Origin: Candidatus Omnitrophota bacterium
GTDB lineage: Bacteria; Omnitrophota; Gorgyraeia; Gygaellales; Profunditerraquicolaceae
DNA: 61,826 bases
Direction of reading: 5' to 3'
Assembly (NCBI GenBank): GCA_028712375.1
Contig: JAQTQG010000006.1
Span: 1-61,826 of the forward strand
Made by a program: the position numbers and the translations under genes. Shown here one piece after another: positions 7,242 through 26,369 of the stretch (its first letter is position 1; the number at the start of each line of letters is the position of its first letter). The notes beneath the pieces were generated by a model. The model ran no database searches. It saw nothing but the letters and a program-made list of their open reading frames with translations, and was not told the DNA's origin.

Positions 7242-7260
7242 TATGACGGGAAGATAGATT

Positions 7261-7334
7261 TGGTTGCCCCGCATGGACTCGAACCATGATAACAAGATCC
7301 AGAATCTTGTGTCCTACCATTAGACGACAGGGCA
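7261..7334 (-). tRNA. tRNA-Gln(CUG), CCA encoded
   Basis: Hand-folded cloverleaf: TGCCCTG/CGGGGCA acceptor stem, GTC/GAC D-stem, CAAGA-TTCTGGA-TCTTG anticodon arm, CATGG-TTCGAGT-CCATG T-arm, then ACCA. Confidence 0.85.
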
Positions 7335-7569
7335 ATAAAACTATTGAATTTTGTCCTACCTCCCGCCAAAAAGACGGCGGGATTTCGCTGTATATAAAAC
7401 CAAGGTGCTCAAATTAGACGACAGGGCAATAAAACTATTGAATTTTGTCCTACCTCCCGCCAAAAAGACGGCGGGATTTCGCTGTATATAAAACCAAGGT
7501 GCTCAAATTAGACGACAGGGCAATAAAACTATTGAATTTTGTCCTACCTCCCGCCAAAAAGACGGCGGG
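7319..7569. repeat. 2.7 tandem copies of a 94-bp unit, each beginning with tRNA-Gln nt 1-16 plus its upstream leader
   Basis: attagacgacagggca... recurs at 7319, 7413 and 7507 with by-eye perfect identity. A decayed further copy lies near 7640-7680. Confidence 0.9.
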
Positions 7570-7913
7570 TCCTTGCACTAAACATAAGGATTTCACTAGA
7601 TTCTTATGGGTGTTCAAATTTCGCCAGAACAGAATTCATCGGGCTCAAATTAGACGGCAAAACAATGAATTCATTAACCTACTATACTAGCTGCACTCAC
7701 AATTACTATTCTTAATGATAAAATGAGCATAACGCATTGTCATTTCCAATGATTTACACATTAATAATTATCTTAAGCTATTTTAAGTCTGCACCCAACA
7801 TAGCCAGATGCGAGCGGAACTCCAGCGTAAGCCATGGAATCGAAAATTAATTATACCCGCTCTTTTTAAGGCTGTAAAGAAGGATTTTCCTTCACCCTAA
7901 AACACATAAATAC

Positions 7914-9557
7914 CTACTCCATTAGGTATTTATTTTTAAAAACATACACATTTGTTATGCCCGCAGATTCCTTGCACAAAGCATTATCCAGGTAAAGTTT
8001 ATCTTTTTTCCCGGGAAAAGAATAATGAAACTTTACAATTTTTAATAATATGAATTTATCAAAATTTTGCTTAAAAGATTTGTATAAATATTTTGTATGG
8101 TTCCAAGCGTACTCCGGCAGGATTTCCTCAATAATCAAAAAATCACAACGGCTTATCTGCCTGCTAAAATCATTATTTATTTTTTTATCAGGCATAAAAT
8201 AAGCCTGGTCAATTACTGTATTATAAAGTTTAACGGGCATTTTTTTAACTATGCGCAGATAATCAAGCGTAGCAATAATCCGGGGGTCTTGGGCAATAAG
8301 CAAAATTTTTATTTTTTTCCTATGCGCAGACTGAACAAAATTATCCGATATAATCTTTATCACCTCTTCCATCCTGTTTTCCCAATCCCCTTCATTAACC
8401 ATCGAAAATAAACCGCTTTCAATTATGCTTCCTCCCGGGACAACGGATGAATTCCTGAAAAATCTATAATCGGCCGGGAAAAGATACCCGAATGAAATTA
8501 CCAAATACTGAATGACGCCGAATAAAACTAAAATCCAAACCAATAATTTTCTATATCTTATAAAAGCAAATACAAATCCTGCTATAAGAACGGCAATATA
8601 AGTAAAAATTGGTAAAATAAAACGATCTTGCTTATTAACCGACAGTGAAAAAATTACCAGCAGCCCTATAACCATCAGGGGAAGAAAATATTTTCCTCTT
8701 TTAAGATGGAAAATCAGGCTGGCGAAAAAAAGTAAGAAGAAAACCCAAAGAAGCTGGCGATTAATCAAAGCCTCCAAATAAAAGAATGGATTTAGAAAAG
8801 TCCTTTCTTGAAGATTGTTATACAAATCTGGTAATCCGCTGCGCAAAACTTTAAAGTAATAACCAGCTGCGATCGCTCCGGCGACGAAAATTAAAAAAGC
8901 AAAGTTTTTCATAATTTTTTTATTTGTTAAATTTCCTTTCTGCAAGAAGAAATACGCTGCAATCGGCAAAAAGAAAATAAAGTATGCCTGTTTGGACAAA
9001 GCACCTAAGCCGATAACAATACCGGTAAGCAAGGAAAATCTAAAGCTATCGAATTGGTTTAAAACAAATAAAAAGAACGTCAGCGCCACCATTGCAGATA
9101 AAGCAAAATCAATTATCAAAACCCTTGATAAAGCAAAAACGGATGGGAATACCGAAACTAAAAAGGCTGCGAGGATACCGGTTTTATAATCATACAATTT
9201 TTTACCAATCCCGTAAGTAGCAAATAATAAAATCGTAAAATAGAGCAAATTTGACATGATCACATTGTTTTTATCAATACCAAGGGCGAGAAAAGGGCTG
9301 GCCGTAATAAAAAATAGGGGCGGTTTTAAATCCGGAGCAAACAAAACATTGCAGGCATTAAGGATAGAGTCAAAGTCTAATCGAATATTTTTTAAAGTTT
9401 TAAAATTATGGTTTATAAAATCAAAATAAATAACGCCATTGACATCCAGGCAATATTGGCTTTTATTTAAAATGGCATAATTGCTTAAACCCTGAAATAA
9501 AATAAGGATAAAGATAAAAAATGCCGCTAATAGTCTTTTATCGAACCGCTTAAACAT
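7914..9557 (-). CDS. GT-C glycosyltransferase (family 39/83, ArnT/PMT-like)
   Basis: 547 aa. The N-terminal polytopic region has an ArnT-like segment (KPPLFF...YGIGKKLY...AAFLVSVFPSVFALSRVLIIDF) followed by a soluble C-terminal domain. Confidence 0.65.
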   Translation of the reverse strand: MFKRFDKRLLAAFFIFILILFQGLSNYAILNKSQYCLDVNGVIYFDFINHNFKTLKNIRLDFDSILNACNVLFAPDLKPPLFFITASPFLALGIDKNNVIMSNLLYFTILLFATYGIGKKLYDYKTGILAAFLVSVFPSVFALSRVLIIDFALSAMVALTFFLFVLNQFDSFRFSLLTGIVIGLGALSKQAYFIFFLPIAAYFFLQKGNLTNKKIMKNFAFLIFVAGAIAAGYYFKVLRSGLPDLYNNLQERTFLNPFFYLEALINRQLLWVFFLLFFASLIFHLKRGKYFLPLMVIGLLVIFSLSVNKQDRFILPIFTYIAVLIAGFVFAFIRYRKLLVWILVLFGVIQYLVISFGYLFPADYRFFRNSSVVPGGSIIESGLFSMVNEGDWENRMEEVIKIISDNFVQSAHRKKIKILLIAQDPRIIATLDYLRIVKKMPVKLYNTVIDQAYFMPDKKINNDFSRQISRCDFLIIEEILPEYAWNHTKYLYKSFKQNFDKFILLKIVKFHYSFPGKKDKLYLDNALCKESAGITNVYVFKNKYLME

Positions 9558-9586
9558 ATAATTACGCCTGCTGCCTTAGAAGTAAT

Positions 9587-11215
9587 TTATTTTATAGAAT
9601 ACAGGATATACACCGCCATTCCATTTCTTTGGTAGAATTTTTTCTCTTCAATCAAGGATCTACCAGAATCTAAAACGATTTTCTCAAAGATGCGGTATAT
9701 TTGAGGACGATTGGTAAAAACCGGGCTGTGAAATATATACAGGTTGGCATTCTTATTTAAAGTAAGCTTGCATTCTTCAATAAAACTATTTTTTTTATCA
9801 CTCTCTCCCCCTTCAATATAACCAAACTGACGGGGGATTATCTTGCCTGCGGAAAGAAAAACCAGGTTATGATAAATCCCCCAATCCATTACACAGGGGG
9901 AAAATAATTCATTCTGCTTAAGATAATCTACCAGCTCATAAACGGTATCAGTATAATTACCGGCACCGCCGGTTTTATTGAAATATAGATAGTTATTCCT
10001 CACTGTAGCATTGCATTCTGCCACTACAAAAACTGCTACAACTATATTTATTATTACAACAATTACTCTATTTTTTTTAAAGACTTCTATTATATCCATC
10101 CAGGCTAGCGCTAAAATAACCGGGAGCAGGGGAAATATAATAAACAAGTGGGGGCCGTTTAAGCTGGATAAAGTGAATGGCGATTGCAAAATAACCAGGC
10201 ATAATAATAGGACAACAAAAGACACCTTCCCCCTGGAAAAACTACTTTTCCCGGAAAAAAATGAAAACGCTAACCAAAATAAAGAACCAAAAAATAAAAA
10301 AGGATAGAGTTGATTTACCGCTATCTGCTCCCGGGCAACCCCCTGCATCATTAAAGGGTGCAGCCCATTAAGGTAATTAATGAAAAATTCCATCCGGCTA
10401 CTTAAATTTTCAAAATACAGGCCGTTATTAATAGAAAACTTTGTTTTAAAAAAATGTTCTGTTATATAATTAACGGTATTTCCTTTAACCTTAAAGTTAT
10501 AAATAACAAACAATGCGAGCCCGCTGGTAAAACTTAACAGACCAAAAAACAGGTATCTAGCCGGACTATTTCGTATTTTGCTCAAGATTTTTTTATGGAA
10601 AATCAGGAACAAAATAATCAGGCTGTTAACAAACCATAGAAACCAAACCCGGATACTTATTCCTAACCCAAGAATAAATAAAACAACATAAAAATAGACG
10701 CGGTTACTTCCACGATACCATTTGAATAAACTGCATAACACCAATATAGCTGCCAAATGCAACATTGAAGCACTATTGAGCCCAAGTTTTGTCTCCAACA
10801 GGAACACGGAGCTAATTGTTAAAAAAATTATGCTGGCAAAAGCAACTTTACGATTAAAAAAATCTTTTAATAAAAAATACAAAGCGATTAAAAACCCCGC
10901 CTGCATAATTATAGGCACTAGCCTTAAAACAACTACGTTTGCTCCAAATAACCAGAGAAAAGGTGAAAGGATATAACCTTCCATTGCCCCGGAGTACTCT
11001 GCGCCCTGCATAATCGGTAAACACCTGCCGAATAATTTTACCGAATAATACGCAAACGGACCGATATTTTTAAGAATTTGCAGGCCGATACATCCGGAAA
11101 AAGCTTCATCTACATACAGCCCCGGCAGGCTGATATTTATAATTTCTAAAATTAAATAAATGAGAATAATTACCGCTAAAATTATTTTTTCGTTTTTTTC
11201 CATAAAACCTGCCAT
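9587..11215 (-). CDS. GT-C-like polytopic membrane glycosyltransferase
   Basis: 542 aa. A first-loop acidic motif (GLYVDEAF), many TM helices and a soluble C-terminus. Confidence 0.5.
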   Translation of the reverse strand: MAGFMEKNEKIILAVIILIYLILEIINISLPGLYVDEAFSGCIGLQILKNIGPFAYYSVKLFGRCLPIMQGAEYSGAMEGYILSPFLWLFGANVVVLRLVPIIMQAGFLIALYFLLKDFFNRKVAFASIIFLTISSVFLLETKLGLNSASMLHLAAILVLCSLFKWYRGSNRVYFYVVLFILGLGISIRVWFLWFVNSLIILFLIFHKKILSKIRNSPARYLFFGLLSFTSGLALFVIYNFKVKGNTVNYITEHFFKTKFSINNGLYFENLSSRMEFFINYLNGLHPLMMQGVAREQIAVNQLYPFLFFGSLFWLAFSFFSGKSSFSRGKVSFVVLLLCLVILQSPFTLSSLNGPHLFIIFPLLPVILALAWMDIIEVFKKNRVIVVIINIVVAVFVVAECNATVRNNYLYFNKTGGAGNYTDTVYELVDYLKQNELFSPCVMDWGIYHNLVFLSAGKIIPRQFGYIEGGESDKKNSFIEECKLTLNKNANLYIFHSPVFTNRPQIYRIFEKIVLDSGRSLIEEKKFYQRNGMAVYILYSIK

Positions 11216-13766: not shown

Positions 13767-14708
13767 TTACTCCTGGGCAAAATCAAAGAAATTAGAATTT
13801 GACCTGCCGGGCGCGCGCCGGGGATCATTAGAAAAAATAAATGCATTCTGCTGACGATTTAGCTGGTCACAAACACCGCAATAAGGGAATTTATCAAAAT
13901 TTGTTTTTTTATGCCCCTGCCTTAATTCTTCATACAAGCTACTGTGCATCACCTCTTCTATGCTTTGATCTCTTAAATTGCCCAAAACCAGGTAACCATT
14001 ATAATCAAAACAGCAGGGAACAACTACCCCGTCCCATTGCACTTGCAAAGGCCCACACCATGGCCTGCCGCAACTTTTAGGCTTAACCGCCTGAGCCCTG
14101 TAAACTCTTCCGTCAATATAGTTATGCGGCCGCCAAATTTCAACAAAATCAGCTGTTATCCAGAAATTTTCGAAAGCCGCCGCCTGATGGGCATTTTCAT
14201 CCAAAACAAGAAAAGAAAGCGAAATTTCCGGATGGGGCAAATGCCGAAGTTTTTTTTGTTCTATTAACTTTTGGACGTTCGCTAAAGTAACATTAAAAGA
14301 TAATCCGCGATGCACTAACTCATAAACATCGCTAGTCAATCCATAAAAACTTATCCTTAGGCCGTCTAGGCCTGAAGTAATTATATTATCAGACATCTGC
14401 GAGTTAAGTAAAGAGGCGTTGGTAATGGTATTTACGCTTAAGCCTCTATCTTTAATATATTTTATGCGCTCTATAAAATAAGGATCCAGCAGGGGTTCGC
14501 CGAATCCTCCTAAAAAAATATGTTTTACACCGCAAGACACAGCATTATCAACAATTTTTTTAAAAAGCGGCCATTCCATTATACCCTGCGCCCGGGTTAA
14601 TTTATCCCGCGGGCACATAATACAGCTGCTGTTACATAAATTTGTATTTTCAATCCTTACTTCTGGATTTGTTAGTTTCATCTTTTTTTTCACCTGATAA
14701 AAAAACAT
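13767..14708 (-). CDS. radical SAM protein with SPASM/twitch-like C-terminal Cys cluster
   Basis: CNSSCIMC (CX3CX2C) near the N-terminus. C-terminal CGRPWCGPLQVQWDGVVVPCCFDYNG...PYCGVCDQ. Confidence 0.8.
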   Translation of the reverse strand: MFFYQVKKKMKLTNPEVRIENTNLCNSSCIMCPRDKLTRAQGIMEWPLFKKIVDNAVSCGVKHIFLGGFGEPLLDPYFIERIKYIKDRGLSVNTITNASLLNSQMSDNIITSGLDGLRISFYGLTSDVYELVHRGLSFNVTLANVQKLIEQKKLRHLPHPEISLSFLVLDENAHQAAAFENFWITADFVEIWRPHNYIDGRVYRAQAVKPKSCGRPWCGPLQVQWDGVVVPCCFDYNGYLVLGNLRDQSIEEVMHSSLYEELRQGHKKTNFDKFPYCGVCDQLNRQQNAFIFSNDPRRAPGRSNSNFFDFAQE

Positions 14709-16236
14709 CTGCTTTTTCGGCTATGCGGCCCACTGTAATACTGTCAAAACACAACCTTTTATCAAACAAACAATACTCCGCGTTACAAGGTGAACATGCT
14801 ATATTCGGAACAACTGAAGCATGCGAAGGAATGCTGTGCCCCGGAAGGCCCGGGCTAGTGGAACCATAAATAACAACACAATTAGTACGCAGCGCCACCG
14901 CAATTTCAGAAGCTCCCGAATCATTAACAATTAAAAGCTTTGCTTTCTCCAATAAAGCCGCATAAAGATCCACGGTTAATAAGCCGGCTAGATTCCAATG
15001 TTTTTTCTTCATCAAGCCAGACATCGCATAATCAACATCGGTGTTGTAACTGTTCAAAGGCTCAGCTATAATTACTTTTGCTTGATAGGTATCCACCAGA
15101 TAATCTCCGATCTCTGCAAATCTAGCAACTGCCCAACGCTTATGCTGCACTGTCCCGGGAGTAACTACCACAATCAAACTATTGCTATCTATGCCCTGGT
15201 GGTTAAGAATACTCTTGATCTTTTCCCGAGAAAGATCATTTACCATCAAACCTGGCAAATTTACCGATACCGGAATATTACAGCGAAGAAGAAAGTCAAT
15301 ATAAGTATCTCCGGTCTTAACTGGCAGCGATCTCTCGGGCTCCTTAAAGCCACCCGCACAGGCAGGCTCGGCAATATTAAACACCTTTCTCCCTTTAATA
15401 AATTTGTCAAATGCCGGCAATTCGGATTTTTTCCCTCCCAATAAATACACCGCCTGAAATTTGAACCTTAAAACATCGGGGAATACCTTAAAAATGTTAT
15501 GCAGCCATTTTTTTTTGTTGAAAAACACCCAATTGCTAACAAAAGGAATACACTTTACGAGATCTTTATAATTATCCGGGATAATTGCAGTTATCCTGGT
15601 CTGCGGGAAATTTGCCCGAAGGTTCTGCAGAACCGGTAAAGTAATAATAAAATCTCCTAATCCTGCAGTAGTCCGGTATGCAACGCAAATACCATCATTT
15701 ATACAGGCATAACGCAAGCGCCATAAATTAGCCCCCCGCATAAACAGTTCAACTAAATAATTTCTTAATTTAAGACAAGCATAAAAAGCTTTTCTAATAA
15801 AATACCTGGTCAGTTTATGAAAAAGAATAAAAAACAATGCCACCGGTAATTTTGCCCCCTTGATCTTCATAGAATACTTCTTATTCCAACGGTTAACAAT
15901 AACCAACTCTCTTTCGCTCCGCAATAGCAATAACGAAGCTAAAAGTAAGCTAGCGGCCCAAATTTTTGGCATGTTGATATACGGTAAAAAAACCACCTTA
16001 AAGCGGACATCGCGGATACGTTTAAAAGCTAATAATAAATCACGGAAATTATCCAAACAACCCAAAACATTGCATTTAGCAGTATTCCAGGCCAACGCAT
16101 TTTTTTTACCGAGAGCAATAATCGAAATGTCGGAAAATTGTATGCCGGGATAATAAAATTGCACATAAGCAAGCGCGCATTTCCTATAGGTCGCGTAATC
16201 CGCAGTTAATATAAGTATTTTATCCGAAGTAGGCAT
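14650..16236 (-). CDS. family 9 glycosyltransferase (heptosyltransferase-like) with ~180-aa N-terminal extension
   Basis: GLGDFIITLPVLQNLRANFP and C-terminal NDSGASEIAVAL motifs, typical of GT9. Confidence 0.7.
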   Translation of the reverse strand: MPTSDKILILTADYATYRKCALAYVQFYYPGIQFSDISIIALGKKNALAWNTAKCNVLGCLDNFRDLLLAFKRIRDVRFKVVFLPYINMPKIWAASLLLASLLLLRSERELVIVNRWNKKYSMKIKGAKLPVALFFILFHKLTRYFIRKAFYACLKLRNYLVELFMRGANLWRLRYACINDGICVAYRTTAGLGDFIITLPVLQNLRANFPQTRITAIIPDNYKDLVKCIPFVSNWVFFNKKKWLHNIFKVFPDVLRFKFQAVYLLGGKKSELPAFDKFIKGRKVFNIAEPACAGGFKEPERSLPVKTGDTYIDFLLRCNIPVSVNLPGLMVNDLSREKIKSILNHQGIDSNSLIVVVTPGTVQHKRWAVARFAEIGDYLVDTYQAKVIIAEPLNSYNTDVDYAMSGLMKKKHWNLAGLLTVDLYAALLEKAKLLIVNDSGASEIAVALRTNCVVIYGSTSPGLPGHSIPSHASVVPNIACSPCNAEYCLFDKRLCFDSITVGRIAEKADVFLSGEKKDETNKSRSKD

Positions 16237-16243
16237 TTATATT

Positions 16244-17722
16244 TCAAATATTCCCCAGCCCAAGCTGCTTTATTTCCCCGATTACCATTTCCGGAGTTAA
16301 GTCCTGCATACATTTTCTCTCAGGCAAGATACAGCGCCCCGTACAAGGACTGCATTGACAAGCGGTATTCCTGATAACTTTATAAGCAGGATGATTATAC
16401 CCACTGACCACCGGATCAGTAGCGCCATAAACCACTGCAGCCGGAGTCCCCACGGCAAATGCAATATGCGCCGGGCCGGAATCATTACACACCACCAGTT
16501 TGGATTTTTTAATTACGGCAACTAATTGACTTTGGCTCAAGCTGCCGGTCAAATTTAAACAATTTCCTTCAAGCTGACTGGCAATTGCCCGGGATTTTAA
16601 CAACTCCACAGTATCGGATGCTCCGGAAATAACAATTTTATACTTGTAGTGCTGGGCAATAAACCGGGCGACCTGCAAATACCCTTGCGCCAACCATGTG
16701 CGGACATCATCTCTTCCGGGGACAATCACGGCAAAGGCCGTATCCGGACCAATTCCCTGTTTAGACAAAAGTTTTTCTGTATCCTGCAAAACCTCAGGCG
16801 GGACACTTAAGGCCGTTCCTAATCCATCTGTTTTTAAACCATTCTGCATTAAATAGTTCAAAGAAAGCCACCTCAGCCCGAGGCTGCCATAAGTTTTTGC
16901 TTCACGCACTATCCTAAAATTATATATTTTTGCTTTATTAAACAGTAATTTAAGATAGCCGATAAACGGAGATTCCCCCAACACAAAAATGTTTTTAATA
17001 TTTTTTTGATACAGTTGGCGCAAGACACGGGCGTCCACACAACCGGAATCCTCTTTTGGAGTAAAATACCAATAATCCACTCCCGGGATACACCTACTAA
17101 TATCTTTAAATTTACCCCAACTCAAACAATTAACCTTGTGCCCGGGAAAATTAATATTAACCGCCCTTATATAGGGGGTAGTTGCTGTTAAATCCCCAAT
17201 TCCTAATACACCTAAAATAACCAAATTTTCATTTGCGGTAGAAATTGATTGCCTGCGGACAAACATGCTCTGCAATAGAAGATACAAATACGCCGACCTT
17301 ACAGAGAATAATTTATTCCAGCAAGACTTCAGAGTATTTATTAAATCGTTTCTCCAGGCATTTATCAGACCCCCGGGGGAATAAATAAGGCCTCCTAAAT
17401 CCGGGACCCAAATTACTTTGACTTTAAACAAGCTTAAAAATAAAAATAATAAAAAATTTATAGAAGTTTTAATTATTTTTTTATCCGATAAAACAAATAT
17501 AATTACAGAATATTTATTGCGCAGGAGGGATAAAATACCATTCAGATGCCCAACGATCAAACGGCATTTACTGACAGACCAGACGATTTTTTCTTTTTTT
17601 CCACAAAGTATAACGGTTAACTCCGCCTCAGGGGCTATCTGCCGGGCGATCGGTATAATACATTTCCTGTAAACATTATAACTACTGATAAAAGCTGCTA
17701 AGCTCGGCTTGTTTTGGCTCAT
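16244..17722 (-). CDS. family 9 glycosyltransferase, paralogue of the downstream gene, same N-terminal extension
   Basis: GIGDLTATTPYIRAVNINFP and CNDSGPAHIAFAVG. The N-terminus is alignable with that of 14650..16236. ATGA overlap with the upstream gene. Confidence 0.7.
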   Translation of the reverse strand: MSQNKPSLAAFISSYNVYRKCIIPIARQIAPEAELTVILCGKKEKIVWSVSKCRLIVGHLNGILSLLRNKYSVIIFVLSDKKIIKTSINFLLFLFLSLFKVKVIWVPDLGGLIYSPGGLINAWRNDLINTLKSCWNKLFSVRSAYLYLLLQSMFVRRQSISTANENLVILGVLGIGDLTATTPYIRAVNINFPGHKVNCLSWGKFKDISRCIPGVDYWYFTPKEDSGCVDARVLRQLYQKNIKNIFVLGESPFIGYLKLLFNKAKIYNFRIVREAKTYGSLGLRWLSLNYLMQNGLKTDGLGTALSVPPEVLQDTEKLLSKQGIGPDTAFAVIVPGRDDVRTWLAQGYLQVARFIAQHYKYKIVISGASDTVELLKSRAIASQLEGNCLNLTGSLSQSQLVAVIKKSKLVVCNDSGPAHIAFAVGTPAAVVYGATDPVVSGYNHPAYKVIRNTACQCSPCTGRCILPERKCMQDLTPEMVIGEIKQLGLGNI

Positions 17723-18612
17723 TTAGCTGCAAGCGCCCTTACAAAATTTACCGCTGTGTTATCAGGCACAAACTCCAGTTCATAACAAGGGATATTTTTT
17801 ACAATCTGTCCGCATAAATCTATAGATTTTTGATAAGCGCAATTATCCCACAGCGGAGCATGCGATCTTGAAATAAGTAAAGATACCGCCTGGCTGCTGG
17901 AAACACGGGTAGCCTTATTCGCCTTTCCATGTTTTAGAAAAAAGATGCCCTTCAGCGGCGCCCCGGATGGAGATACATTTCTAAATTTACCGAACCACGG
18001 AGTCCCGAAAATCCAGAACTTTTTATTGATTTTCCGGATAATCACTTTATCGTCATTAAGTAACATTGCCCCGCTTTTTATCCATAAATTAGCGGTGGTT
18101 GTTTTTCCGTATCCGGAATGCCCTAAAAATATGAACCCTACCCCTTTATCCACCACTCCGCAGGAATGAAAAAGAACGGCGTTCTTGGTATAAAGCAACG
18201 AAGAAACTAAAATCGGCCCCATCAAAGGAAGCAAAGGATTGATTTCCGGAGTTTTCCCCAGCCGATTGCGGTCGAATATTTCTCCATAGCTGAAGTTTTT
18301 ATTAAAAACTGCGGCATGGTATGGCTGGGGTAAATATTTAATTTCGGGAGCGCTAAATAATAAAATTTTTTTATTCTCAGCCTGGTGCAAACCCCAATAA
18401 TATCCATCAAAGATTTTTTGGCTGTTATTTAAAGATAGAAACTTTTTATCCACGTCTCTGCATTTAATCACCAGCCTGATGTCCGGCCGGGACATAGAAC
18501 CCACGATAAACCTTTTTAGCATATGGATATTTTCAAGCTTGCTTAAAGAATTCTGAGATTCTAATGAAAATTTAATACCCCCGATTTTAAAACAGATTTT
18601 GCGCTTTACCAT
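17719..18612 (-). CDS. HPr-kinase-like P-loop protein (HprK C-terminal-domain homologue)
   Basis: P-loop FLGHSGYGKTT. The start is moved to ATG 18612 (MVKRKICFKIGG), which overlaps the upstream stop by 7 nt. Confidence 0.6.
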   Translation of the reverse strand: MVKRKICFKIGGIKFSLESQNSLSKLENIHMLKRFIVGSMSRPDIRLVIKCRDVDKKFLSLNNSQKIFDGYYWGLHQAENKKILLFSAPEIKYLPQPYHAAVFNKNFSYGEIFDRNRLGKTPEINPLLPLMGPILVSSLLYTKNAVLFHSCGVVDKGVGFIFLGHSGYGKTTTANLWIKSGAMLLNDDKVIIRKINKKFWIFGTPWFGKFRNVSPSGAPLKGIFFLKHGKANKATRVSSSQAVSLLISRSHAPLWDNCAYQKSIDLCGQIVKNIPCYELEFVPDNTAVNFVRALAAK

Positions 18613-20711
18613 ACATTTCCTTTGGTTAAGATTAATTGATTTGTAAAAAATAATGACTCCACATATTCTTCTGTGCCCAGGCTTTTTCTTGCCCGACAAT
18701 ATTCTTTTGCTGTTATTTTATCAAGAGAAATGCATTTTGAACACACATTGTTTGCCGGGCAATATTTACACCCTCGCTCTGCTTGGATTTTCTGCATGAG
18801 AGCAGATATCCTGCTGGATAAAACCTCTACCCCCTGCGCTGTCCGGCCAACCACTGTGCCGGAAAAACAAGTGCAGACCTTACCGCTTTCCCCTAACACC
18901 AGACGGCTTAAGTTGCTTAACGGACATTTCCTGTGCCAACGGCAACTGTCCAGAATTATTATATTTTTATTTTTTCCTTTTTTGAATAAAACCAGTTGGT
19001 TTTTCAGCGCAAGCATATCTTGATTATCGGCAATCTTATAAATACACCCGGAGTCAACAGAAGAATAATCTGCCAAATGCTTAAAATTAAGAGATCTTTT
19101 AAAACTATCCAATACTCTGTTTTCCAGGCCGGCAACACTTAAGCAACTGTAGCGGGGATGTAAAAAACTGGCCGTATTCACCAGCAAACTTAAATGCCCG
19201 GTTCTGCGGCCGGATAATAAAATTTCCACATTCTTGCCAAAAATAAAGCTGGACCCCAAGGCTAAGTTATTTTCCATCCATTGCACAGGAAATTTTTTAG
19301 CCGCCACAACCACATCAATATTTCTTTTTCTATTTTCGGTCCCGCCATATATACCCGTCATGTTCCTTAAAAAAACCTGCCCCGTAGCGTTAAAAAAGTT
19401 CAATGATTCTAAGTCATTGTTTAGGCGGGGAATCTTATACACATTATATGCATAATTAACGGGATTAAGTACCGGATCAGAAACAACTTGCTTAAACTTA
19501 AAAGGCGGGATTCTTATCCCCCATTGCAAATGCTCTTTGGCGATTTGCGTACCAGAAAATATGTTCAAAAAATTATGCACATAAGTAGTAGGATTTAATT
19601 CCCTGAGGAAATTGATCGTTTTAATCGCTTTCTCATACGTATCACCAGGCAGGCCGAAAATAACACTTATATTGACATGAAATCCAAGTTTTTTAGCAGA
19701 ATAGGTAATCTTTTTTACCTTACCGATAAAATTCTTTTCCGCAGTAAAAATACCAGTTTTCTCCAATGCCTGCCCTTTGATTTTCTTTATGTTAAACAAA
19801 ACATCAACAGATGCGCTCTCCAGCCCGAATTTAATATGCTCAAAACCTGCCGCGTGCAATTCCTTTAAAATACCTTCATCAATAAAATCCGGACGGGTCA
19901 GGAATGAAAATCTTAACTTTAATTTATGCGCCGATATTTTGTCACAAATCCGGCTAACCCGCGTTTTGTTAAAAGTAAATATATCATCCTGTATTGCTAT
20001 TTTTCGATGATGATAATCGTGAATTTTGGAAGAAATTAACTGGAATTCCCGGATAATACGCCGGGTAGAATGATACCGGATAGTATGCCGGGACATCGCG
20101 GCAAAATTACAATAACTGCAATTAAATATACAGCCCCTGCTGGTTAACAGGGGAATTTCACTATTTACCCTCAAGACATCCGCTGGATCCAGAACCCCGC
20201 TAAGGTAAGGAGAGGGAATTGCATCTAAATTTTTTATTAAAGGCCTGCCTGGATTCCTGATAATTTTATTATTTAAACGATAAGTAATACCTTTTATTTT
20301 TGATAAATTTTTTCTTGCGCCTTGAGACAATAACTCCAACACAGTAAGCTCGCCTTCGCCTCTTACGCAAAAATCTAGAGCTTTTGTATCCTGCATAATA
20401 TTCATATCCGAAAATGTAGCCGTGGGGCCGCCGGCCAGGGTTAGAACTGTGGGAGTTTTTTGCTTAATTGCAGAGGTAATTTTTTTAACCAGGAAATAAT
20501 TAGCGTCAAAACAGGTAAACCCGGCAAAAACCGGACGTAAATCAAGGATCCGATCGGTTAATTCGCTGACGCTTAATTGATTACTGCAGATGAATTGCGA
20601 AGCATTTATTCCATTTTTTTTCAAATAGGCAACAATATAACTGGCACCTAGATGATATTGGCTGCTGCCGTCTTGCTGAAAAAAAATAAAAACACATTTG
20701 TTTCCTCTCAT
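18606..20711 (-). CDS. B12-binding-domain radical SAM enzyme (class B-like) with Cys-rich C-terminal extension
   Basis: Flavodoxin-like N-terminal region, SRGCIFNCSYCNF (CX3CX2C), and a ~250-aa C-terminal extension ending CKYCPANNVCSKCISL. Confidence 0.75.
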   Translation of the reverse strand: MRGNKCVFIFFQQDGSSQYHLGASYIVAYLKKNGINASQFICSNQLSVSELTDRILDLRPVFAGFTCFDANYFLVKKITSAIKQKTPTVLTLAGGPTATFSDMNIMQDTKALDFCVRGEGELTVLELLSQGARKNLSKIKGITYRLNNKIIRNPGRPLIKNLDAIPSPYLSGVLDPADVLRVNSEIPLLTSRGCIFNCSYCNFAAMSRHTIRYHSTRRIIREFQLISSKIHDYHHRKIAIQDDIFTFNKTRVSRICDKISAHKLKLRFSFLTRPDFIDEGILKELHAAGFEHIKFGLESASVDVLFNIKKIKGQALEKTGIFTAEKNFIGKVKKITYSAKKLGFHVNISVIFGLPGDTYEKAIKTINFLRELNPTTYVHNFLNIFSGTQIAKEHLQWGIRIPPFKFKQVVSDPVLNPVNYAYNVYKIPRLNNDLESLNFFNATGQVFLRNMTGIYGGTENRKRNIDVVVAAKKFPVQWMENNLALGSSFIFGKNVEILLSGRRTGHLSLLVNTASFLHPRYSCLSVAGLENRVLDSFKRSLNFKHLADYSSVDSGCIYKIADNQDMLALKNQLVLFKKGKNKNIIILDSCRWHRKCPLSNLSRLVLGESGKVCTCFSGTVVGRTAQGVEVLSSRISALMQKIQAERGCKYCPANNVCSKCISLDKITAKEYCRARKSLGTEEYVESLFFTNQLILTKGNVW

Positions 20712-20987: not shown

Positions 20988-22064
20988 CTAAGCCATCAAA
21001 TTTCTTATTTTTTTAAACCTTAGTTTTGCTGTTTTACACATAAATGCGACGGGAGTGCCGATTGCGGTTTTTTCGATCAGATTCCACCCGGGGCAACATC
21101 CGCAAAGTACGTATAATGAACAATTATAGCATTTATTAGTCCTATTTTTCAACTTAATTTTGCTTGCATAAACCCTGGGCAGCTCTTTAAAAAATCCCTC
21201 CCGGAAGGAACCTTGAAGTATATTATAATTGGGCAGGCGGGACAAAACACAACCCCCCAAACGGCCAGAGGGGTCAATGTTGAACATCCCCTTACCAGCT
21301 GAACACATATATACTGAATCAGCCGGTTTTTGCCCGTAATATATCTTGTAAAATTTCTTCCATTCTTGCAGCCTTTTTTTATTGCTCAAGTCATATCGCA
21401 CTATTTCCTCCGGAGTCAACCTATACCCGCAGGGTTCAATCGAACCATCCAGATCCGAAGTGATCATCGGGTCATAGCGAAATGTGGTTTTAAACTTATC
21501 TGCTAACCGCTCTATTGCTTTAAACTCATGTTTATTTAATGTCATTAGCGCTGTTTTAACTTTAAATTTAATACCATACTTATGCAATAGTTTTATGCCA
21601 TTAAAACATTTCTCAAATGAACCGTTAACCCTGGTAATGCTTTCATAGGTTTTTTTAGTAACACCATAAATAGAAATTTCGATACCGAAAGGCGGATATC
21701 TGTGCAATAAATCAGCCATCCTCCGGTCGATTAGCGTCCCGTTGCTCAGCAACGTTATTAAAAAACCTTTACTTTTGGCATACAGGTAAATTTTTTTAAA
21801 ATCCCTCCTAATCATCGCTTCTCCGCCGGTCAAGGCTAGCCAGAGACAACCGGACGCAGCAAGCTGGTCCAAGACGCTGCAGACTTCCCGGAATGACATT
21901 TCTTTGCTTGCTTTATTCCTCTTGCCGATGTAACAATGCACGCACTTTAAATTACATTTGTAAGTAAGGTCTATCTGCCCTTGAATAGGAATATTTTTAT
22001 TAACGGTTTTATTAAAAATCCCCTTATTAAATATATTGTAAGGCAACACGCAGATATTACTCAT
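20988..22064 (-). CDS. radical SAM/SPASM peptide maturase paralogue 5 (subtype A)
   Basis: CNLKCVHCY, GCLWLALTGGEA, C-terminal CSAGKGMFNIDPSGRLGGC...CYNCSLYVLCGCCPG. ATGA overlap with the upstream gene. Confidence 0.85.
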   Translation of the reverse strand: MSNICVLPYNIFNKGIFNKTVNKNIPIQGQIDLTYKCNLKCVHCYIGKRNKASKEMSFREVCSVLDQLAASGCLWLALTGGEAMIRRDFKKIYLYAKSKGFLITLLSNGTLIDRRMADLLHRYPPFGIEISIYGVTKKTYESITRVNGSFEKCFNGIKLLHKYGIKFKVKTALMTLNKHEFKAIERLADKFKTTFRYDPMITSDLDGSIEPCGYRLTPEEIVRYDLSNKKRLQEWKKFYKIYYGQKPADSVYMCSAGKGMFNIDPSGRLGGCVLSRLPNYNILQGSFREGFFKELPRVYASKIKLKNRTNKCYNCSLYVLCGCCPGWNLIEKTAIGTPVAFMCKTAKLRFKKIRNLMA

Positions 22065-23176
22065 TGCTTCTCACCATTCTCTTTGCGCAACCTGGCTATT
22101 TTACAATAATAATTTTTTATCTTTGTATACCCTTTGGCGGAATCAGGATTATCCAAAAGGTTAAAACAAATACCGCAATAGGCAAGATAGGCGCATTTTT
22201 TACAAAAACAATCATTTTGGTCTCTTTCTTCTGCAAGTTTTTTTAAAAAATCCTGCCAACAAGCAGTAATTCCGCGCTTGACCAGATTATATTTCTGTTT
22301 TATGCACGGAAAATACCGATTTACGTCCAAATCCCCGCAAGGAGTAATGATCATCCCTTTTAAAGCAGAATTAAGCTGGTCCAGTTTTTGGCAATAATTT
22401 GTTGTCGCTATACCCCGGCGCTCATCTTCTTTAATCTTTCTGTAGAACTCTTTAAGCGTTCTACTTCTCGACTGCCCATACTCATTCTTTTCCACCTGCA
22501 AAACATCCTTAACCGTAGCCAAACAGGATTCAATGCTATCCAGGCAGGTATCATGAAGAGGGGGGAATAAAACCGGATTGCACATAAAACGTATCCCTCT
22601 GCTTATGGCAAAATCTTTAACCCGGCTAATCTGGTCTTTGTTTTGCCTGAATAACGGGGTTTTTATCCCTATTCTCACGCCATTCTTTAAAAGAAAATTT
22701 ATTCCCGCCAAACATCTATTAAATGAACCGGCCACCTGAGTAATCTCTTCATAAATCCTTCTGTCGGTAGCATACAGCGATATCTGTATCTCAAAAGGAG
22801 GGTTCTTTTTGAAAAATTCAGCGGCGGCAAAATCAATTAAAGCAGCATTAGTATATATGATAATTAAGAAACCTTTCTTTTTTGCGTAACGATAAATTTT
22901 AAAAAAATCTCTGTGCGCAAGCGGTTCTCCGCCGGAAAGAACCAGCCATAAAACCCCCGCATTGGCTAATTTATCCAATATTTTATAAATATTTTTTAAT
23001 TTTAACTCTCTTTTATCTATCTTGGCGGTAAGATGTTCATCCTCAATATAACAATGGATGCATTTATAATTACAGCGGTGGGTAATTTCCAATGCGCTTA
23101 CTTTCGGCAAGGCATATTTGTCCCTTTCAAAGAACTTCGTATAAAATGAAGGGTAATCTAACTCCCGGATGATCAT
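22061..23176 (-). CDS. radical SAM/SPASM peptide maturase paralogue 4 (subtype B)
   Basis: CNYKCIHCY, GVLWLVLSGGEP, C-terminal ITPCGDLDVNRYFPC...CFCKKCAYLAYCGIC. ATGA overlap. Confidence 0.85.
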   Translation of the reverse strand: MIIRELDYPSFYTKFFERDKYALPKVSALEITHRCNYKCIHCYIEDEHLTAKIDKRELKLKNIYKILDKLANAGVLWLVLSGGEPLAHRDFFKIYRYAKKKGFLIIIYTNAALIDFAAAEFFKKNPPFEIQISLYATDRRIYEEITQVAGSFNRCLAGINFLLKNGVRIGIKTPLFRQNKDQISRVKDFAISRGIRFMCNPVLFPPLHDTCLDSIESCLATVKDVLQVEKNEYGQSRSRTLKEFYRKIKEDERRGIATTNYCQKLDQLNSALKGMIITPCGDLDVNRYFPCIKQKYNLVKRGITACWQDFLKKLAEERDQNDCFCKKCAYLAYCGICFNLLDNPDSAKGYTKIKNYYCKIARLRKENGEKQ

Positions 23177-24225
23177 CTAAAATGCTCCTCTAACGCCTTA
23201 AGCCTGGCCCGAGTCACTTGGCAATGATAATCTCGAAAAACACTCCCCTGGCGGCTCAGCACGCTATGCGAAGCGCATTGGTAGCAAAAACGGAAGATTT
23301 CACATTCTTTACAAACACAGTCAAAAGAATCAACCTGTTGTTCTGCCTGTGCTAAATATTGTTTCCAAGCCGATGAAAATTTTATTTTCGTAAGATCAAA
23401 TACCAGCGGTATACAGGGGAATCTCCGCGTATTATTGAACTCCCCAAAAGCATTAATGATAAAGGCGCGGTGCACTCTTTCAAAAAGGCATTTTTTTATA
23501 CTCTTTCCCTCTTTATAACAAAAATAGTCCTGTTTCCAGCGGTCCAACAATCCATCGCTTAGTTCAACCTTAACCAACTCTTCCGCAGACAACCCCTGCT
23601 TCATTACGCGATCTTCATGAATAATTGTAGGGTCTACGTAAAGGTAATAGTCAAAATCAATGCCTAATTTTCTGGCATAATCTTTTGCGATAAATAATTC
23701 ATGCCGGTTTACTTTTAATAACGGCATCCTCAACATACCAATCCTTAAATCTGACTTCAATAACAGGCTTAGTCCGTTCCTAAAGCGGCTAAACGATCCC
23801 TTAACCCCGGAAACTTTTTCATACACATTTTCGGTAACACCTAAAATGGATAATTGAACTTGAAGCGGCGGATTTTTCTCAAGGCGAGTAATAAGTTTTT
23901 TATCTAATAATGTAGCATTGGTTAAGAGCGTAATGACAAACCCCATTTTTTTAGCATAAAGATAAATATCGAGAAAGTCTTTTCTAATTAAAGGTTCACC
24001 TCCGGTGATCGTCAGCCACAAACAGCCGGCATCCCGGATATCTTTAAGAATTTTAAAAACTGAAGCAGTACTTAATTCTTTTTTATCCGAAAAATCGCAG
24101 CTTGTTGAACAGTGGATACAGCGATAATTGCACTTATAAGTTATTTCAAAACTGCCTTTATAGGGCAACCCGCGGGAAATTATTCTTTGCTCATTAATGG
24201 CGCGGAAAAAAGATTTTTTAACCAT
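23173..24225 (-). CDS. radical SAM/SPASM peptide maturase paralogue 3 (subtype B)
   Basis: CNYRCIHCS, GCLWLTITGGEP, C-terminal CVCKECEIFRFCYQC. The track start at 24246 is TTG; ATG 24225 (MVKKSFF) overlaps the upstream stop by 8 nt and is preferred. Confidence 0.8.
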   Translation of the reverse strand: MVKKSFFRAINEQRIISRGLPYKGSFEITYKCNYRCIHCSTSCDFSDKKELSTASVFKILKDIRDAGCLWLTITGGEPLIRKDFLDIYLYAKKMGFVITLLTNATLLDKKLITRLEKNPPLQVQLSILGVTENVYEKVSGVKGSFSRFRNGLSLLLKSDLRIGMLRMPLLKVNRHELFIAKDYARKLGIDFDYYLYVDPTIIHEDRVMKQGLSAEELVKVELSDGLLDRWKQDYFCYKEGKSIKKCLFERVHRAFIINAFGEFNNTRRFPCIPLVFDLTKIKFSSAWKQYLAQAEQQVDSFDCVCKECEIFRFCYQCASHSVLSRQGSVFRDYHCQVTRARLKALEEHFR

Positions 24226-25264
24226 GTTTTCCAAAGCTCTTCGCAAAATATTTCGCCCTAAGTTTTGCTACCTGGCAATAATAATCTAAATATTTTCTTT
24301 GATCATTCTTCTGTTTTAAAATGGCTGAACACTTATCGCAAAATGCAAAGAAGGAGCAACCGCTGCACTCCCTGACGCTGGAATAGTTCTCCAAAGACTT
24401 TCTGTTTAAAATCTTCCAGCCGTCCCGGAAAGTACCTGAAATTAAACTATACCCGGGTGTACGCGGATACATTTTGCACATCATAAGCTTACCGCAAGAA
24501 TCAATCATAAACGACTTGCGCCCGGCATCACAGGTATATTTCCTTTTCCCCGGCTGTTTATTACAAGACCCTTCAAATTGCTTCTGCCATAATTGACGCC
24601 TCAGGCTGCGTTGAGCTAAGTCTAGCGCAACAACTTTATCCGGAGCCAAAGCATACTTAAAAACCTCTCCGCTGCCATCAATCCCCGGCCTAATCACCGG
24701 GTCAAATTTAAAAAAGAAGTTTTTCGCCCGGGCCAGTTGGCCTATTTTTTTAATCTCCTGAACATTTAATGTCGTCACGGTGGTTTTTATTTCAGTACGG
24801 ACACCGTATCTAAACAAAAGATCGATACCCGCCATGCATTTTTTATAGGAGCCTTTAACTCCGGTTATTTTTTCATAAACTTCTTTGGTCGCCCCGTAAA
24901 CAGAGACCTCAACAAGATAAGGTGGTAAACCTCTAAACAGTTTTGCTATTTTATCATTAATCAAGGTGCCATTAGTCAGTATCTTAACCAGCAAGCCTTT
25001 ACTTTTAGCGTATCTGTATATTTCAGAGAAGTCCTTCCTTAATAATGGTTCGCCGCCGGTAAAATGCAGCAAAATACAACCTGCCCGGACAATTTGGTCA
25101 AATATTTTGCATACTGTTTCATAAGACAATTCTTTAGCATAAAAATCATTCTTTAGATAACAATGCCGGCACTTTAGGTTACAATGTGAGGTTAATTCTA
25201 TACCGCCCTTAATCGGTAAAAAGTTACTTTTAAACAGTTTGGTTATTTTTTCTTCGAATAACAT
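24218..25264 (-). CDS. radical SAM/SPASM peptide maturase paralogue 2 (subtype A)
   Basis: CNLKCRHCY, GCILLHFTGGEP, C-terminal CDAGRKSFMIDSCGKLMMC...CSGCSFFAFCDKC. Confidence 0.85.
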   Translation of the reverse strand: MLFEEKITKLFKSNFLPIKGGIELTSHCNLKCRHCYLKNDFYAKELSYETVCKIFDQIVRAGCILLHFTGGEPLLRKDFSEIYRYAKSKGLLVKILTNGTLINDKIAKLFRGLPPYLVEVSVYGATKEVYEKITGVKGSYKKCMAGIDLLFRYGVRTEIKTTVTTLNVQEIKKIGQLARAKNFFFKFDPVIRPGIDGSGEVFKYALAPDKVVALDLAQRSLRRQLWQKQFEGSCNKQPGKRKYTCDAGRKSFMIDSCGKLMMCKMYPRTPGYSLISGTFRDGWKILNRKSLENYSSVRECSGCSFFAFCDKCSAILKQKNDQRKYLDYYCQVAKLRAKYFAKSFGKHG

Positions 25265-26369
25265 TATTTTTAGCCCTGAAATAGTTAGCGCGCAAAGCCG
25301 CAGTTTCGCAATAATGGCTCTTCATCGCCTCAACTAGGTTAGCTCCGGATGCCTGAGGCTGTTTAAAAGCTGCTGCGCCTAAACAATAATCACAAAAATA
25401 CCGTATTTTACAATTTAAACATTTTTTATTATCCTCAAGAATTGTATCGCTTATTTTTTGCAATTTTAACCAAGCCTCTTTTATCCTGCCACCCGCTAAA
25501 CTGCTGCCTGGCACTCTAGCTAACATGCACATGCTCATCGATCCATCTGCACAAACACAAAAAGCGTTTTGACCGGCGCCGCACTCATCAAATATGTATT
25601 CTTTTTCCAACCGGCTTTTCTTTACGCTAATCTTATTTTTAAAATACTCTAATTTTTCCTTAAATTGCATTTCTGCATTTACTACTTCTTTTGGTTTTAA
25701 TCTATAGCTAAAGGGTACAAGCGAGCCATCCAAGCCGGGATAAATAGCTGCATCAAACCTAAACGGCACATCTAGTTCTTTAGCCCACTTTCTAGCCATT
25801 CCTAACTCATGCTTGTTGATAGTCAACAGGGGCATTTTAAGGCTAAGCGGTATTTTGTGTGAAATTAATAATCCCAGCCCTTTTTTAAAATTTTCGAATG
25901 ACCCTGCTACTTTGGTAACCGCCTCATAAGTTTTTCTGGTACACCCGTAAATTGAAACCTCCACAAAAAGCGGCCGCCAGACAGTAAGCATCTTTGCTAA
26001 CTGCGGGGTAACAAGAGTAGCGTTGGAAAAAATTACAATTAAAAAACCCTTTTTCTTGGCATATAAGTAAATGTCCGGGAAATCTTTTCGCAAAAATGGT
26101 TCCCCGCCGGTAAAAATCAACCAAAGACAACCGCAAGAAGCAATTTTATCAAGAAGCCTTAAAATTTTATTTTTTGGCATGCGGGCTGTTTTAGAAGCAG
26201 ACTTGGGAATATAGCAATGCACGCACTTTAAATTACATTTTAAAGTCGGCTCAAAAAAACACTTCAGAGGTACATCTTTATTGTGAGTTTTACTGTGCAG
26301 GCGGGCTCTAAAAACATTATGCAGAAGTTCTTGCATTTTCAATGCCGGGGTCCTTCTGACAACCCTCAC
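25230..26369 (-). CDS. radical SAM/SPASM peptide maturase paralogue 1 (subtype A)
   Basis: CNLKCVHCY, GCLWLIFTGGEP, C-terminal CGAGQNAFCVCADGSMSMC...CLNCKIRYFCDYC. The track start is GTG at 26369 (GTGA overlap with pqqD-like). An alternative ATG at 26336 fits the paralogue N-terminal lengths better. Confidence 0.8.
   Translation of the reverse strand: MRVVRRTPALKMQELLHNVFRARLHSKTHNKDVPLKCFFEPTLKCNLKCVHCYIPKSASKTARMPKNKILRLLDKIASCGCLWLIFTGGEPFLRKDFPDIYLYAKKKGFLIVIFSNATLVTPQLAKMLTVWRPLFVEVSIYGCTRKTYEAVTKVAGSFENFKKGLGLLISHKIPLSLKMPLLTINKHELGMARKWAKELDVPFRFDAAIYPGLDGSLVPFSYRLKPKEVVNAEMQFKEKLEYFKNKISVKKSRLEKEYIFDECGAGQNAFCVCADGSMSMCMLARVPGSSLAGGRIKEAWLKLQKISDTILEDNKKCLNCKIRYFCDYCLGAAAFKQPQASGANLVEAMKSHYCETAALRANYFRAKNNVIRRKNNQTV

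Follow-up and report, generated by a model that had tools for sequence, protein, structure and literature searches.

Five radical SAM/SPASM-type paralogues in tandem beside a single four-cysteine precursor peptide in an Omnitrophota operon

The minus strand of a 61,826-nucleotide contig of a Candidatus Omnitrophota bacterium (JAQTQG010000006.1, assembly GCA_028712375.1; the whole stretch is called the window below) carries, between positions 26369 and 20988, five complete open reading frames (ORFs), r1 to r5, for proteins of the radical S-adenosylmethionine (rSAM) superfamily, followed by one gene for a precursor peptide with four core cysteines. We propose, at a probability of roughly 60%, that r1–r5 are non-redundant maturases of one pathway for a ribosomally synthesised and post-translationally modified peptide (RiPP), and that the operon is a rare expanded form of a widespread system composed of a PqqD-family protein, an rSAM/SPASM enzyme, a Cys-containing precursor and a ScmC-like protein. 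Characterised rSAM-modified RiPPs mostly rely on one maturase for every crosslink, and the few exceptions use two enzymes; in the present case one four-Cys precursor is accompanied by 5–7 deeply diverged enzymes, which three lineages retain as orthologous sets. As a PqqD-dependent rSAM/SPASM RiPP pathway it is of an already known kind, and what is new is the conserved set of five to seven enzymes together with a variant, as read from sequence, of the SPASM cluster-ligand pattern. Judged by its genes, it is a rare pathway predicted to modify one short peptide unusually heavily.

The five ORFs of the ORF listing lie where a first-pass annotation of this DNA had put them (Table 1), and its description of five tandem, overlapping rSAM/SPASM-type paralogues with a PqqD partner agrees with the ORFs, the Pfam scores and the junctions. 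Each of the five scores 65–85 bits against Pfam Radical_SAM (PF04055; cutoff 29.5), which places all of them in the superfamily. The junctions are, as had been described, ATGA, GTGA or overlaps of 8–35 nt: PqqD and r1 share a GTGA, r1 and r2 overlap by 35 nt, r2 and r3 by 29 nt with a TTG start or by 8 nt with an internal ATG, and r3/r4 and r4/r5 meet in ATGA. Pairwise alignment and phylogeny gave identities of 28–40% among the five and set apart the two subtypes that had been claimed. Identity this low marks r1–r5 as paralogues of long standing, not copies produced by the assembly; a recent tandem duplication or an assembly artefact is ruled out by these values together with the orthologues in other genomes. 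The alignment was also inspected for lost Cys ligands, which would have pointed to pseudo-enzymes, and none of the five is obviously one: CxxxCxxC, GGE and the 7–8 C-terminal Cys are intact in r1–r5 and in their orthologues, which rules this candidate out. All five paralogues carry the block CN[LY][KR]C[VIR]HC as well as GGE, whereas two further blocks that had been called common to all are not quite so, as r4 reads GVLWL in place of GC(L/I)(W/L)L and r2 ends its block in YAKSKGL instead of GF. Two other cysteines of the rSAM core of r5, C73 (in GC-LWL ahead of GGE) and C153 (SFxxC), are at least 90% conserved in an 81-sequence family alignment, and the extra paralogues vary at the equivalent positions, r4 lacking the first and r1 and r3 the second.

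The multi-enzyme version recurs in two further metagenomic lineages, which were reached through the genomic context of B-type matches (see below), with five paralogues at one locus (L083; Logan SRR22388083) and seven at the other (L084/L085, with L167; JGI 3300037880 and NCBI GCA_020063065.1). The gene order of L083 is Wzy_C, NTP_transf_5, two rSAM genes, PqqD, a methyltransferase, two rSAM genes, a B12-binding rSAM gene (B12-rSAM), one rSAM gene and the precursor, and that of L084/L085/L167 is NTP_transf_5, two rSAM genes, PqqD, four rSAM genes, B12-rSAM, one rSAM gene, the precursor and ScmC. ScmC is found in L084/L085, and the L083 contig stops just past the precursor. The precursors of L083 (...AEEAVLTGCLKGTDIGPSLPQCSCTWMTCSSPGS) and L085 (...AEEAVLTGCASKGQNGPATPNCSCSWMICSTGGS) are 57–67% identical to that of the window and have the same four Cys, including a CxC pair, and the NTP_transf_5, PqqD and B12-rSAM proteins of both loci are 38–45% identical to those of the window (PqqD, 39–45%).

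At all three loci the rSAM genes fall into orthogroups (OG) in the collinear order OG1-OG2...OG3-OG4...OG5-precursor. In a neighbour-joining tree (p-distance/Kimura, with bootstrap) OG1 is formed by r1, L083_1 and L085_1 (bootstrap 61%), OG2 by r2, L083_2, L085_2 and P0002 (60%), OG3 by r3, L083_3 (identical with P0188) and L085_5 (83%), OG4 by r4, L083_4 (identical with P0190) and L085_6 (91%), and OG5 by r5, L083_5 and L085_7 (28%). P0002, which comes from an independent Logan contig, is 61% identical to r2. Orthologues are 32–45% identical, compared with 28–40% between paralogues. Reciprocal best hits connect all five window proteins with L083 and four of the five with L085; the best match of r1 in L085 is L085_1, which is not reciprocal, and OG5 gives the clearest reciprocal best hit (45% identity) and always adjoins the precursor. 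Because the orthogroups are collinear in three lineages, the five-fold set is older than the split of these lineages, none of which has lost a member. From the sequences the paralogues appear old and retained, neither redundant nor dead, and are probably specialised. The dedicated roles that the first-pass annotation had suggested for them are in line with this, as the collinear counterparts in two other lineages and the reciprocal best hits, apart from that of r1 and L085_1, argue for non-redundancy.

The precursor ATG lies 12 nt from the r5 stop and has a strong ribosome-binding site, GGGGGAG. The peptide has a leader that reads YEKPKL...EEAVL and a core of 27–28 residues, whose four Cys had been counted correctly, and it is the one precursor of the window cluster; L083 and L085 likewise have one each. 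A six-frame ORF scan combined with jackhmmer on the fetched loci located 79 homologous precursor ORFs adjoining related rSAM genes. Searching the 54-residue peptide against a set of 5.8 billion proteins returned only the peptide itself, small peptides being evidently uncalled in that set. A near-consensus sigma-70-like site at 21152–21123 on the minus strand (TTGAAA-18-TATAAT with a TG, 11 of 12 matches) falls inside r5 near its 3' end, some 150 nt ahead of the precursor ATG; by consensus match it could be a promoter of the precursor's own.

The cluster has one PqqD gene, whose product passes the PF05402 cutoff as a stand-alone PqqD-family RiPP recognition element (RRE) and gives weak matches to lasso PqqD and ScmD. 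In all five paralogues CxxxCxxC starts at residue 28–45, and the AlphaFold2 (AF2) models show one helix only ahead of strand 1; for these two reasons r1–r5 are without a built-in N-terminal RRE, unlike AlbA, CteB and SuiB, which carry an N-terminal recognition domain of about 100 residues. It follows that PqqD is the only recognition element of the cluster, and this single PqqD is presumably common to all five rSAM enzymes.

The two subtypes differ in their auxiliary-cluster cysteines, which were compared with the SPASM motif of Haft & Basu (PF13186), CX9-15GX4C - gap - CX2CX5CX3C - gap - C. The A-type paralogues r1, r2 and r5 fit a 7-Cys SPASM pattern of C-x12-G-x4-C, CxxCx5CxxC and a final C, their sole departure being the last spacing, CxxC and not CxxxC; in r1 the cysteines are C263-x12-G-x4-C281, C317xxC320x5C326xxC329 and C354. 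The motif that had been assigned to these three is thus present, except that the gap from its conserved F to the G is 5 residues and not 7, a detail that, like the two in r4 and r2 above, leaves that description intact in substance. The B-type paralogues r3 and r4, which had been separated by a motif ending in (R/Y)FPC, depart from the canonical 7-Cys motif in its first half, where G-x9-C (FPC) stands in place of G-x4-C: the second Cys is displaced by five residues, which puts it within (R/Y)FPC. Both also have an extra Cys, overlooked in the first-pass annotation, two residues ahead of the CxxC (DCxCKxC), which produces CxCxxCx5CxxC. The eight Cys of r3 are C253-x14-G-x9-C278 (RRFPC), C310xC312xxC315x5C321xxC324 and C342. 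In r4 the first SPASM Cys, kept in r3, is Leu, and the cysteines are 262, 280, C291 of YFPC, C323xC325xxC328x5C334xxC337 and C358. With the fold modelled for r4 still SPASM-like, r3 and r4 are better described as a SPASM variant than as canonical members.

The B-type has relatives that keep these features. When a profile of r3 and r4 was run against 1.84 billion representative proteins and the best 150 matches were examined, P0188, P0189, P0190, P0202 and, as a partial match, P0199 proved to be further B-type proteins. All of them have G[ED]x[DN][VI]xRxxPC and all except P0199 have CxCxxC, the sequence of P0199 leaving the family motifs downstream of RMAPC; both motifs are kept in all B-type orthologues. 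The A and B subtypes fall apart in the tree, and among the fetched loci B-type genes occur only within multi-enzyme arrays. By these sequence features the B-type is a conserved, rare subfamily.

The standard against which the array can be measured is a family with one enzyme. r5 has at least 880 homologues at E≤1e-30, 40–46% identical to it, and is orthologous to the lone maturase of this widespread one-enzyme family, whose metagenome-assembled hosts belong to Acidobacteriota, Chloroflexota, Nitrospirota, Omnitrophota, WOR-3, Fermentibacteria, Verrucomicrobiota, Myxococcota and Elusimicrobiota. Eighty genome and 80 metagenome loci were fetched and scanned in six frames. Their recurrent core is PqqD, one rSAM gene, a small precursor ORF and a ScmC-like kinase gene, often accompanied by a signal-peptidase-like gene, and the precursors have a Y-x-x-P-x-L...EEAVL leader and a GCK...C...C...GS core. 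The window shares this four-part set (r5-type rSAM, PqqD, precursor and ScmC-like protein) with about 30 loci from genomes and dozens from metagenomes. A family rSAM gene was present at 127 of the fetched loci, as one copy in 113 of them, two in four, three in six, five in two and seven in two; many of the fetched contigs are short, and at least nine of those with a single copy extend for about 10 kb to both sides of it. PqqD, a single rSAM gene, a three-Cys precursor and ScmC go together in about 110 of the related loci. A scan of GTDB representatives gave a best relative of 36% identity, and an exact-sequence look-up of r4 returned no record.

Precursors of the single-enzyme loci have, with few exceptions, three core Cys. 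These relatives, about 60 in number, bear out the premise of the first-pass annotation that one maturase is normally enough. A rule of one enzyme for each Cys is unlikely, since a lone enzyme deals with three-Cys cores and seven paralogues accompany the four Cys of a sister locus. Most probably the additional enzymes bring in other chemistry or modify residues other than Cys. Arrays of three paralogues, all A-type, were also seen (L001 7353–11092, L020 9905–15985, L144, L161 and L152 9947–14322), in Candidatus Kaelpia (L001; Omnitrophota), in Elusimicrobia and on metagenome contigs. Their sequences belong to clades other than those of r1–r5, and they look like independent expansions; in L152 the rSAM genes are interspersed with several precursor-like ORFs.

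Structural comparison agrees with an assignment to the rSAM/SPASM maturases. The AF2 models show a beta/alpha core, and that of r4 an rSAM/SPASM-like fold. The r5 model (pLDDT, the predicted local accuracy score, 92) has SkfB, SuiB, anSMEcpe and PqqE as its closest folds at TM-scores of 0.55–0.66, and the r4 model (pLDDT 84) SuiB, SkfB, MoaA, anSME, ChlB and TigE at 0.52–0.63. The closest solved relatives, SkfB, SuiB, CteB, anSME and PqqE, are SPASM/twitch enzymes that modify peptides. SkfB is the nearest of them in fold and in sequence (E=9e-17 for r5, 5e-28 for the family profile), and CteB, anSME and TigE can be aligned with the family profile over its whole length, C-terminal domains included. 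r1–r5 are rSAM/SPASM-type peptide maturases distant from any solved enzyme. The best NCBIfam matches of the five are MftC, AhbD, ScmE, GeoRSP and StsB, none of them at cutoff. For the sacti- and ranthipeptide families the scores are 74 against a cutoff of 850 for AlbA (NF012164), 77 against 300 for SkfB (TIGR04403), 98 against 625 for StsB (NF045574) and 69 against 340 for PapB (NF047865); MftC (TIGR03962), the best match of r5, reaches at most 109 against 265, PqqE (TIGR02109) at most 79 against 381, and the SynChlorMet proteins ScmE (TIGR04250) and ScmF (TIGR04251) 58–84 and 53–82, both against 400. PqqD scores 28 against 100 for ScmD (TIGR04248). The curated cutoffs thereby rule out AlbA, SkfB, PapB, MftC, PqqE and ScmE/F as identities of the five.

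Like AlbA, SkfB, ThnB, CteB, PapB and Tte1186, r1–r5 are rSAM proteins with SPASM/twitch-type clusters that accompany Cys-containing RiPP precursors, and the thioether-forming CteB, QhpD and Tte1186 (PMC10352776) have a 7-Cys SPASM like the one in r1, r2 and r5; Aux I of CteB has an open site that binds a substrate Cys (PMC8172795). The sacti- and ranthipeptide maturases, in contrast, have an N-terminal RRE of their own and use one enzyme for all crosslinks, whereas the window has a separate PqqD and five enzymes that miss the cutoffs of these families 4–10-fold; the B-type has no counterpart among them. More than one divergent maturase per RiPP cluster is known from thuricin CD (TrnC/TrnD), thuricin Z/huazacin (ThzC/ThzD) and ruminococcin C (RumMC1/RumMC2) (PMC8172795; PMC8188230). 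Those clusters usually have two or more precursor genes and enzymes reported as equivalent, unlike the 5–7 enzymes, one precursor and one-to-one orthogroups described here. A discrete PqqD-family chaperone serving rSAM/SPASM enzymes without an RRE is shared with PqqE/PqqD and MftC/MftB, where each chaperone has one enzyme and the product is a redox cofactor, while the window has one chaperone gene for five enzymes. SynChlorMet (TIGR04248–04251, PF27840) comprises the HPr-kinase-like ScmC, the PqqD-like ScmD and two rSAM/SPASM proteins, ScmE and ScmF, and the window operon likewise pairs a PqqD-like and a putative ScmC-family protein with more than one rSAM/SPASM. It differs in having five (or, at a sister locus, seven) enzymes instead of two, and in the B-type variant, the B12-rSAM, NTP_transf_5 and the YxxPxL...EEAVL-GC precursor. 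The lasso-peptide clusters of paeninodin (PadeK) and pseudomycoidin (PsmK/PsmN) resemble the window in an HprK-like kinase together with a nucleotidyltransferase-like protein. Kinases of the HprK type place a phosphate on the C-terminal Ser of lasso peptides, and the addition of hexoses to this phosphate depends on the NTP transferase PsmN (PMC6993621). The family leader has a lasso-like YxxPxL and its precursors nearly always end in Ser; unlike lasso clusters, the window is without a lasso cyclase or B protease and its precursor ends in SG.

From the gene content we infer the following course of modification. PqqD would bind the YEKPKL...EEAVL leader of the precursor and offer the core to r1–r5 in turn. 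r5 would install the modification that defines the family, most likely Cys-derived thioether crosslinks formed with its 7-Cys SPASM. r1 and r2, with a canonical SPASM, and r3 and r4, with the variant, would then add site- or chemistry-specific radical modifications, and in the B-type the eight Cys may fully ligate the auxiliary clusters and support a different reaction. The B12-rSAM could methylate the peptide, the ScmC-like kinase, NTP_transf_5 and the glycosyltransferases could decorate a C-terminal Ser, for which PsmK/PsmN are the precedent, and the signal-peptidase-like protein would cut off the leader, and the ABC transporter would export the product. A further-reaching version, which we hold as tentative, is that the B-type constitutes a new SPASM-variant subfamily whose eight Cys ligate both auxiliary clusters fully and whose chemistry is other than Cys-thioether formation (C-C or C-O crosslinking, epimerisation or dehydrogenation), and that the pathway is an ordered relay in which one PqqD hands the core to 5–7 rSAM enzymes and a B12-rSAM-SPASM fusion. 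If that were so, the product would be among the most densely radical-modified short peptides known and possibly phospho-glycosylated as well.

Several points weigh against the proposal that r1–r5 are non-redundant maturases of one such pathway. OG1 and OG2 have modest bootstrap support and OG5 has weak support, and L085_1 scores marginally higher against r5 than against r1, a near tie. All five paralogues stay below every curated NCBIfam maturase cutoff, and at E≤0.01 none is matched by Pfam SPASM (PF13186). As the window precursor has SG and not S at its end, C-terminal Ser phosphorylation may not apply to it, and the genome may hold further precursors outside the window. Thioether formation is assigned by analogy, and no member of the family has a known product or activity.

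It is conceivable, if rather unlikely, that the number of enzymes reflects obligate hetero-oligomers, either pairs (r1 with r2 and r3 with r4, or A-type with B-type) or a larger complex, in which only part of the subunits are catalytic and the rest act as scaffolds, conduct electrons or clamp the substrate. The orthologues of r1-r2 and of r3-r4 are adjacent in three lineages and most junctions overlap, which fits co-translational assembly; the rSAM enzymes (5–7) outnumber the four Cys, and pseudo-rSAM partners have been discussed for other RiPP clusters (PMC10352776). Yet CxxxCxxC and GGE are present in all copies and orthologues, which is unexpected for pure scaffolds that have diverged so far. 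As to A/B pairs, which the first-pass annotation had raised, synteny does not favour them, since the conserved pairs lie within a subtype, A-A (r1-r2) and B-B (r3-r4), with PqqD between them at other loci.

Redundancy, in which all five enzymes make the same type of crosslink, or a partition of substrates, in which each has a precursor of its own elsewhere, would call for no new chemistry. ThzC and ThzD each suffice alone and TrnC does not differ in function from TrnD (PMC8172795), and a partition could find parallels in the three-paralogue arrays of other lineages, such as L152 with its several precursor-like ORFs. We nevertheless regard this as improbable, as the window, L083 and L085 each have a single precursor, redundant copies would not be expected to persist for as long as these paralogues, 28–40% identical and kept as five collinear orthogroups in three lineages, have done, and the cluster-ligand pattern of the B-type is both different and conserved. 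More improbable still, in our judgement, is that some paralogues act on a cofactor, sugar or lipid supplied by the neighbouring glycan genes rather than on the peptide. Glycan-related genes do stand beside all three multi-rSAM loci, the top NCBIfam matches of r2–r4 include the heme-modifying AhbC, AhbD and NirJ, and the fold matches include BlsE and MoaA. These AhbC/AhbD/NirJ matches, however, are 4–6-fold under their cutoffs and mostly cover the generic rSAM core, the flanking glycan genes are not alike between loci, and r1–r5 all nest in the clade that is linked to precursor, PqqD and ScmC.

The searchable literature holds no description of the family, nor of a RiPP cluster with so many rSAM/SPASM paralogues; it has no paper on SynChlorMet and none in which HPr kinase, radical SAM, PqqD and a precursor peptide come together, and the RRE-Finder paper leaves kinases and SPASM unmentioned. 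Database labels are confined to a generic 'radical SAM/SPASM' and the recent Pfam family ScmC. The array also flags a large PqqD/rSAM/ScmC RiPP family of at least 880 proteins in several phyla for which no product is described in the searchable literature. The system lends itself to asking how rSAM maturases divide their labour on one peptide, how one stand-alone recognition protein serves several enzymes, and how the shifted Cys and the eighth Cys affect auxiliary-cluster function, and the single-enzyme relatives are its built-in natural control.

Table 1. Features of the precursor-rSAM operon and adjoining genes, in the order of the minus strand.
Feature	Coordinates	Strand	Observations
NTP_transf_5 (PF14907) nucleotidyltransferase-like protein	27968–26793	-	Pfam 149.7 bits; first operon gene
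Stand-alone PqqD-family RiPP recognition element	26692–26366	-	PF05402, 51 bits (cutoff 23.4)
r1	26369–25230	-	379 residues; A-type rSAM/SPASM; orthogroup 1
r2	25264–24218	-	348 residues; A-type rSAM/SPASM; orthogroup 2
r3	24246–23173	-	357 residues; B-type SPASM variant; orthogroup 3
r4	23176–22061	-	371 residues; B-type SPASM variant; orthogroup 4
r5	22064–20988	-	358 residues; A-type rSAM/SPASM; orthogroup 5
Precursor peptide	20975–20811	-	54 residues, MKKTKARYEKPKLARVKLIAEEAVLTGCQKPSSGNGPSTPSCTCSSSICSTASG; four core Cys; YxxPxL...EEAVL leader
B12-binding rSAM	20711–18606	-	Pfam B12-binding and Radical_SAM
HPr-kinase-like P-loop protein (ScmC-like)	18699–17719	-	weak Hpr_kinase_C and HprK-related matches
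Two GT9 heptosyltransferase-like glycosyltransferases	17722–16244, 16236–14650	-	Pfam Glyco_transf_9
r6, sixth rSAM, unrelated to r1–r5	14708–13767	-	Pfam SPASM 54.6 bits and Radical_SAM
Signal-peptidase-I/S24-like peptidase	13718–13278	-	GNCMMP instead of GxSMxP
ABC exporter, permease-ATPase fusion	13268–11532	-	Pfam ABC_membrane and ABC_tran

The operon runs on the minus strand from NTP_transf_5 through PqqD, r1–r5, the precursor, the B12-rSAM, the HPr-kinase-like protein, two glycosyltransferases of family GT9, r6 and the peptidase to the ABC exporter. Its upstream boundary is marked by a terminator with a 13-bp stem (28328–28298) and a promoter-like site (28006–27977). NTP_transf_5 is a probable tailoring enzyme, with orthologues of 38% identity at the start of the L083 and L085 clusters. 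The B12-rSAM has HpnJ, ApyD and RiPP C-methyltransferases as its closest NCBIfam matches, all below cutoff, and by sequence is a probable C-methyltransferase; its L083 and L085 orthologues are 38–41% identical over the full length and keep the Cys motif. Its C-terminal 150 or so residues (about 18606–19100) form a third Cys-rich domain of SPASM-like look, D[STA]CRW..CP ... CF.G ... CxxCx5CS[KR]C ... YC, which is kept in L083 and L085 while Pfam reports just the B12-binding and Radical_SAM domains; such a fusion of B12, rSAM and SPASM-like domains seems unusual. The ScmC-like protein, a probable peptide Ser kinase by homology, has homologues in about 30 related loci, and the L085 orthologue (36% identity) is annotated as PF27840, ScmC.

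For the GT9 pair NCBIfam gives heptosyltransferase II below cutoff; the two genes are possible tailoring enzymes, they are not conserved at related loci, and their membership of the cluster is uncertain. The nearest NCBIfam family of r6 is a tungsten-cofactor oxidoreductase rSAM maturase (123 bits, cutoff 380), and r6 has no counterpart in the sister loci L083 and L084/L085. The ABC exporter shows bacteriocin-type and MsbA-like matches below cutoff and probably exports the product. Genes for glycans or envelope polymers flank all three multi-rSAM loci in differing sets: two GT9, two PMT_2 and a Wzy_C in the window (1180–11215, 14650–17722), a Wzy_C in L083 (2607–3857), and a GT2, a TagF-like Glyphos_transf and a CTP_transf_3 in L084/L167 (720–1439 and 14747–16991), a hint that glycosylation of the peptide, or its attachment to a polymer, may take place. 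The signal-peptidase-like protein, by its sequence a likely leader peptidase, is a conserved and so far unremarked member of the RiPP family; in GNCMMP a Cys takes the place of the Ser nucleophile. The C-terminus of the window precursor, ...STASG, is set beside a family in which nearly all 79 precursors, those of L083 and L085 included, end in Ser (GS, TS or AS), and homologues of the peptidase stand beside 61 related loci, 49 of them with Ser, five with Cys and seven without the motif.

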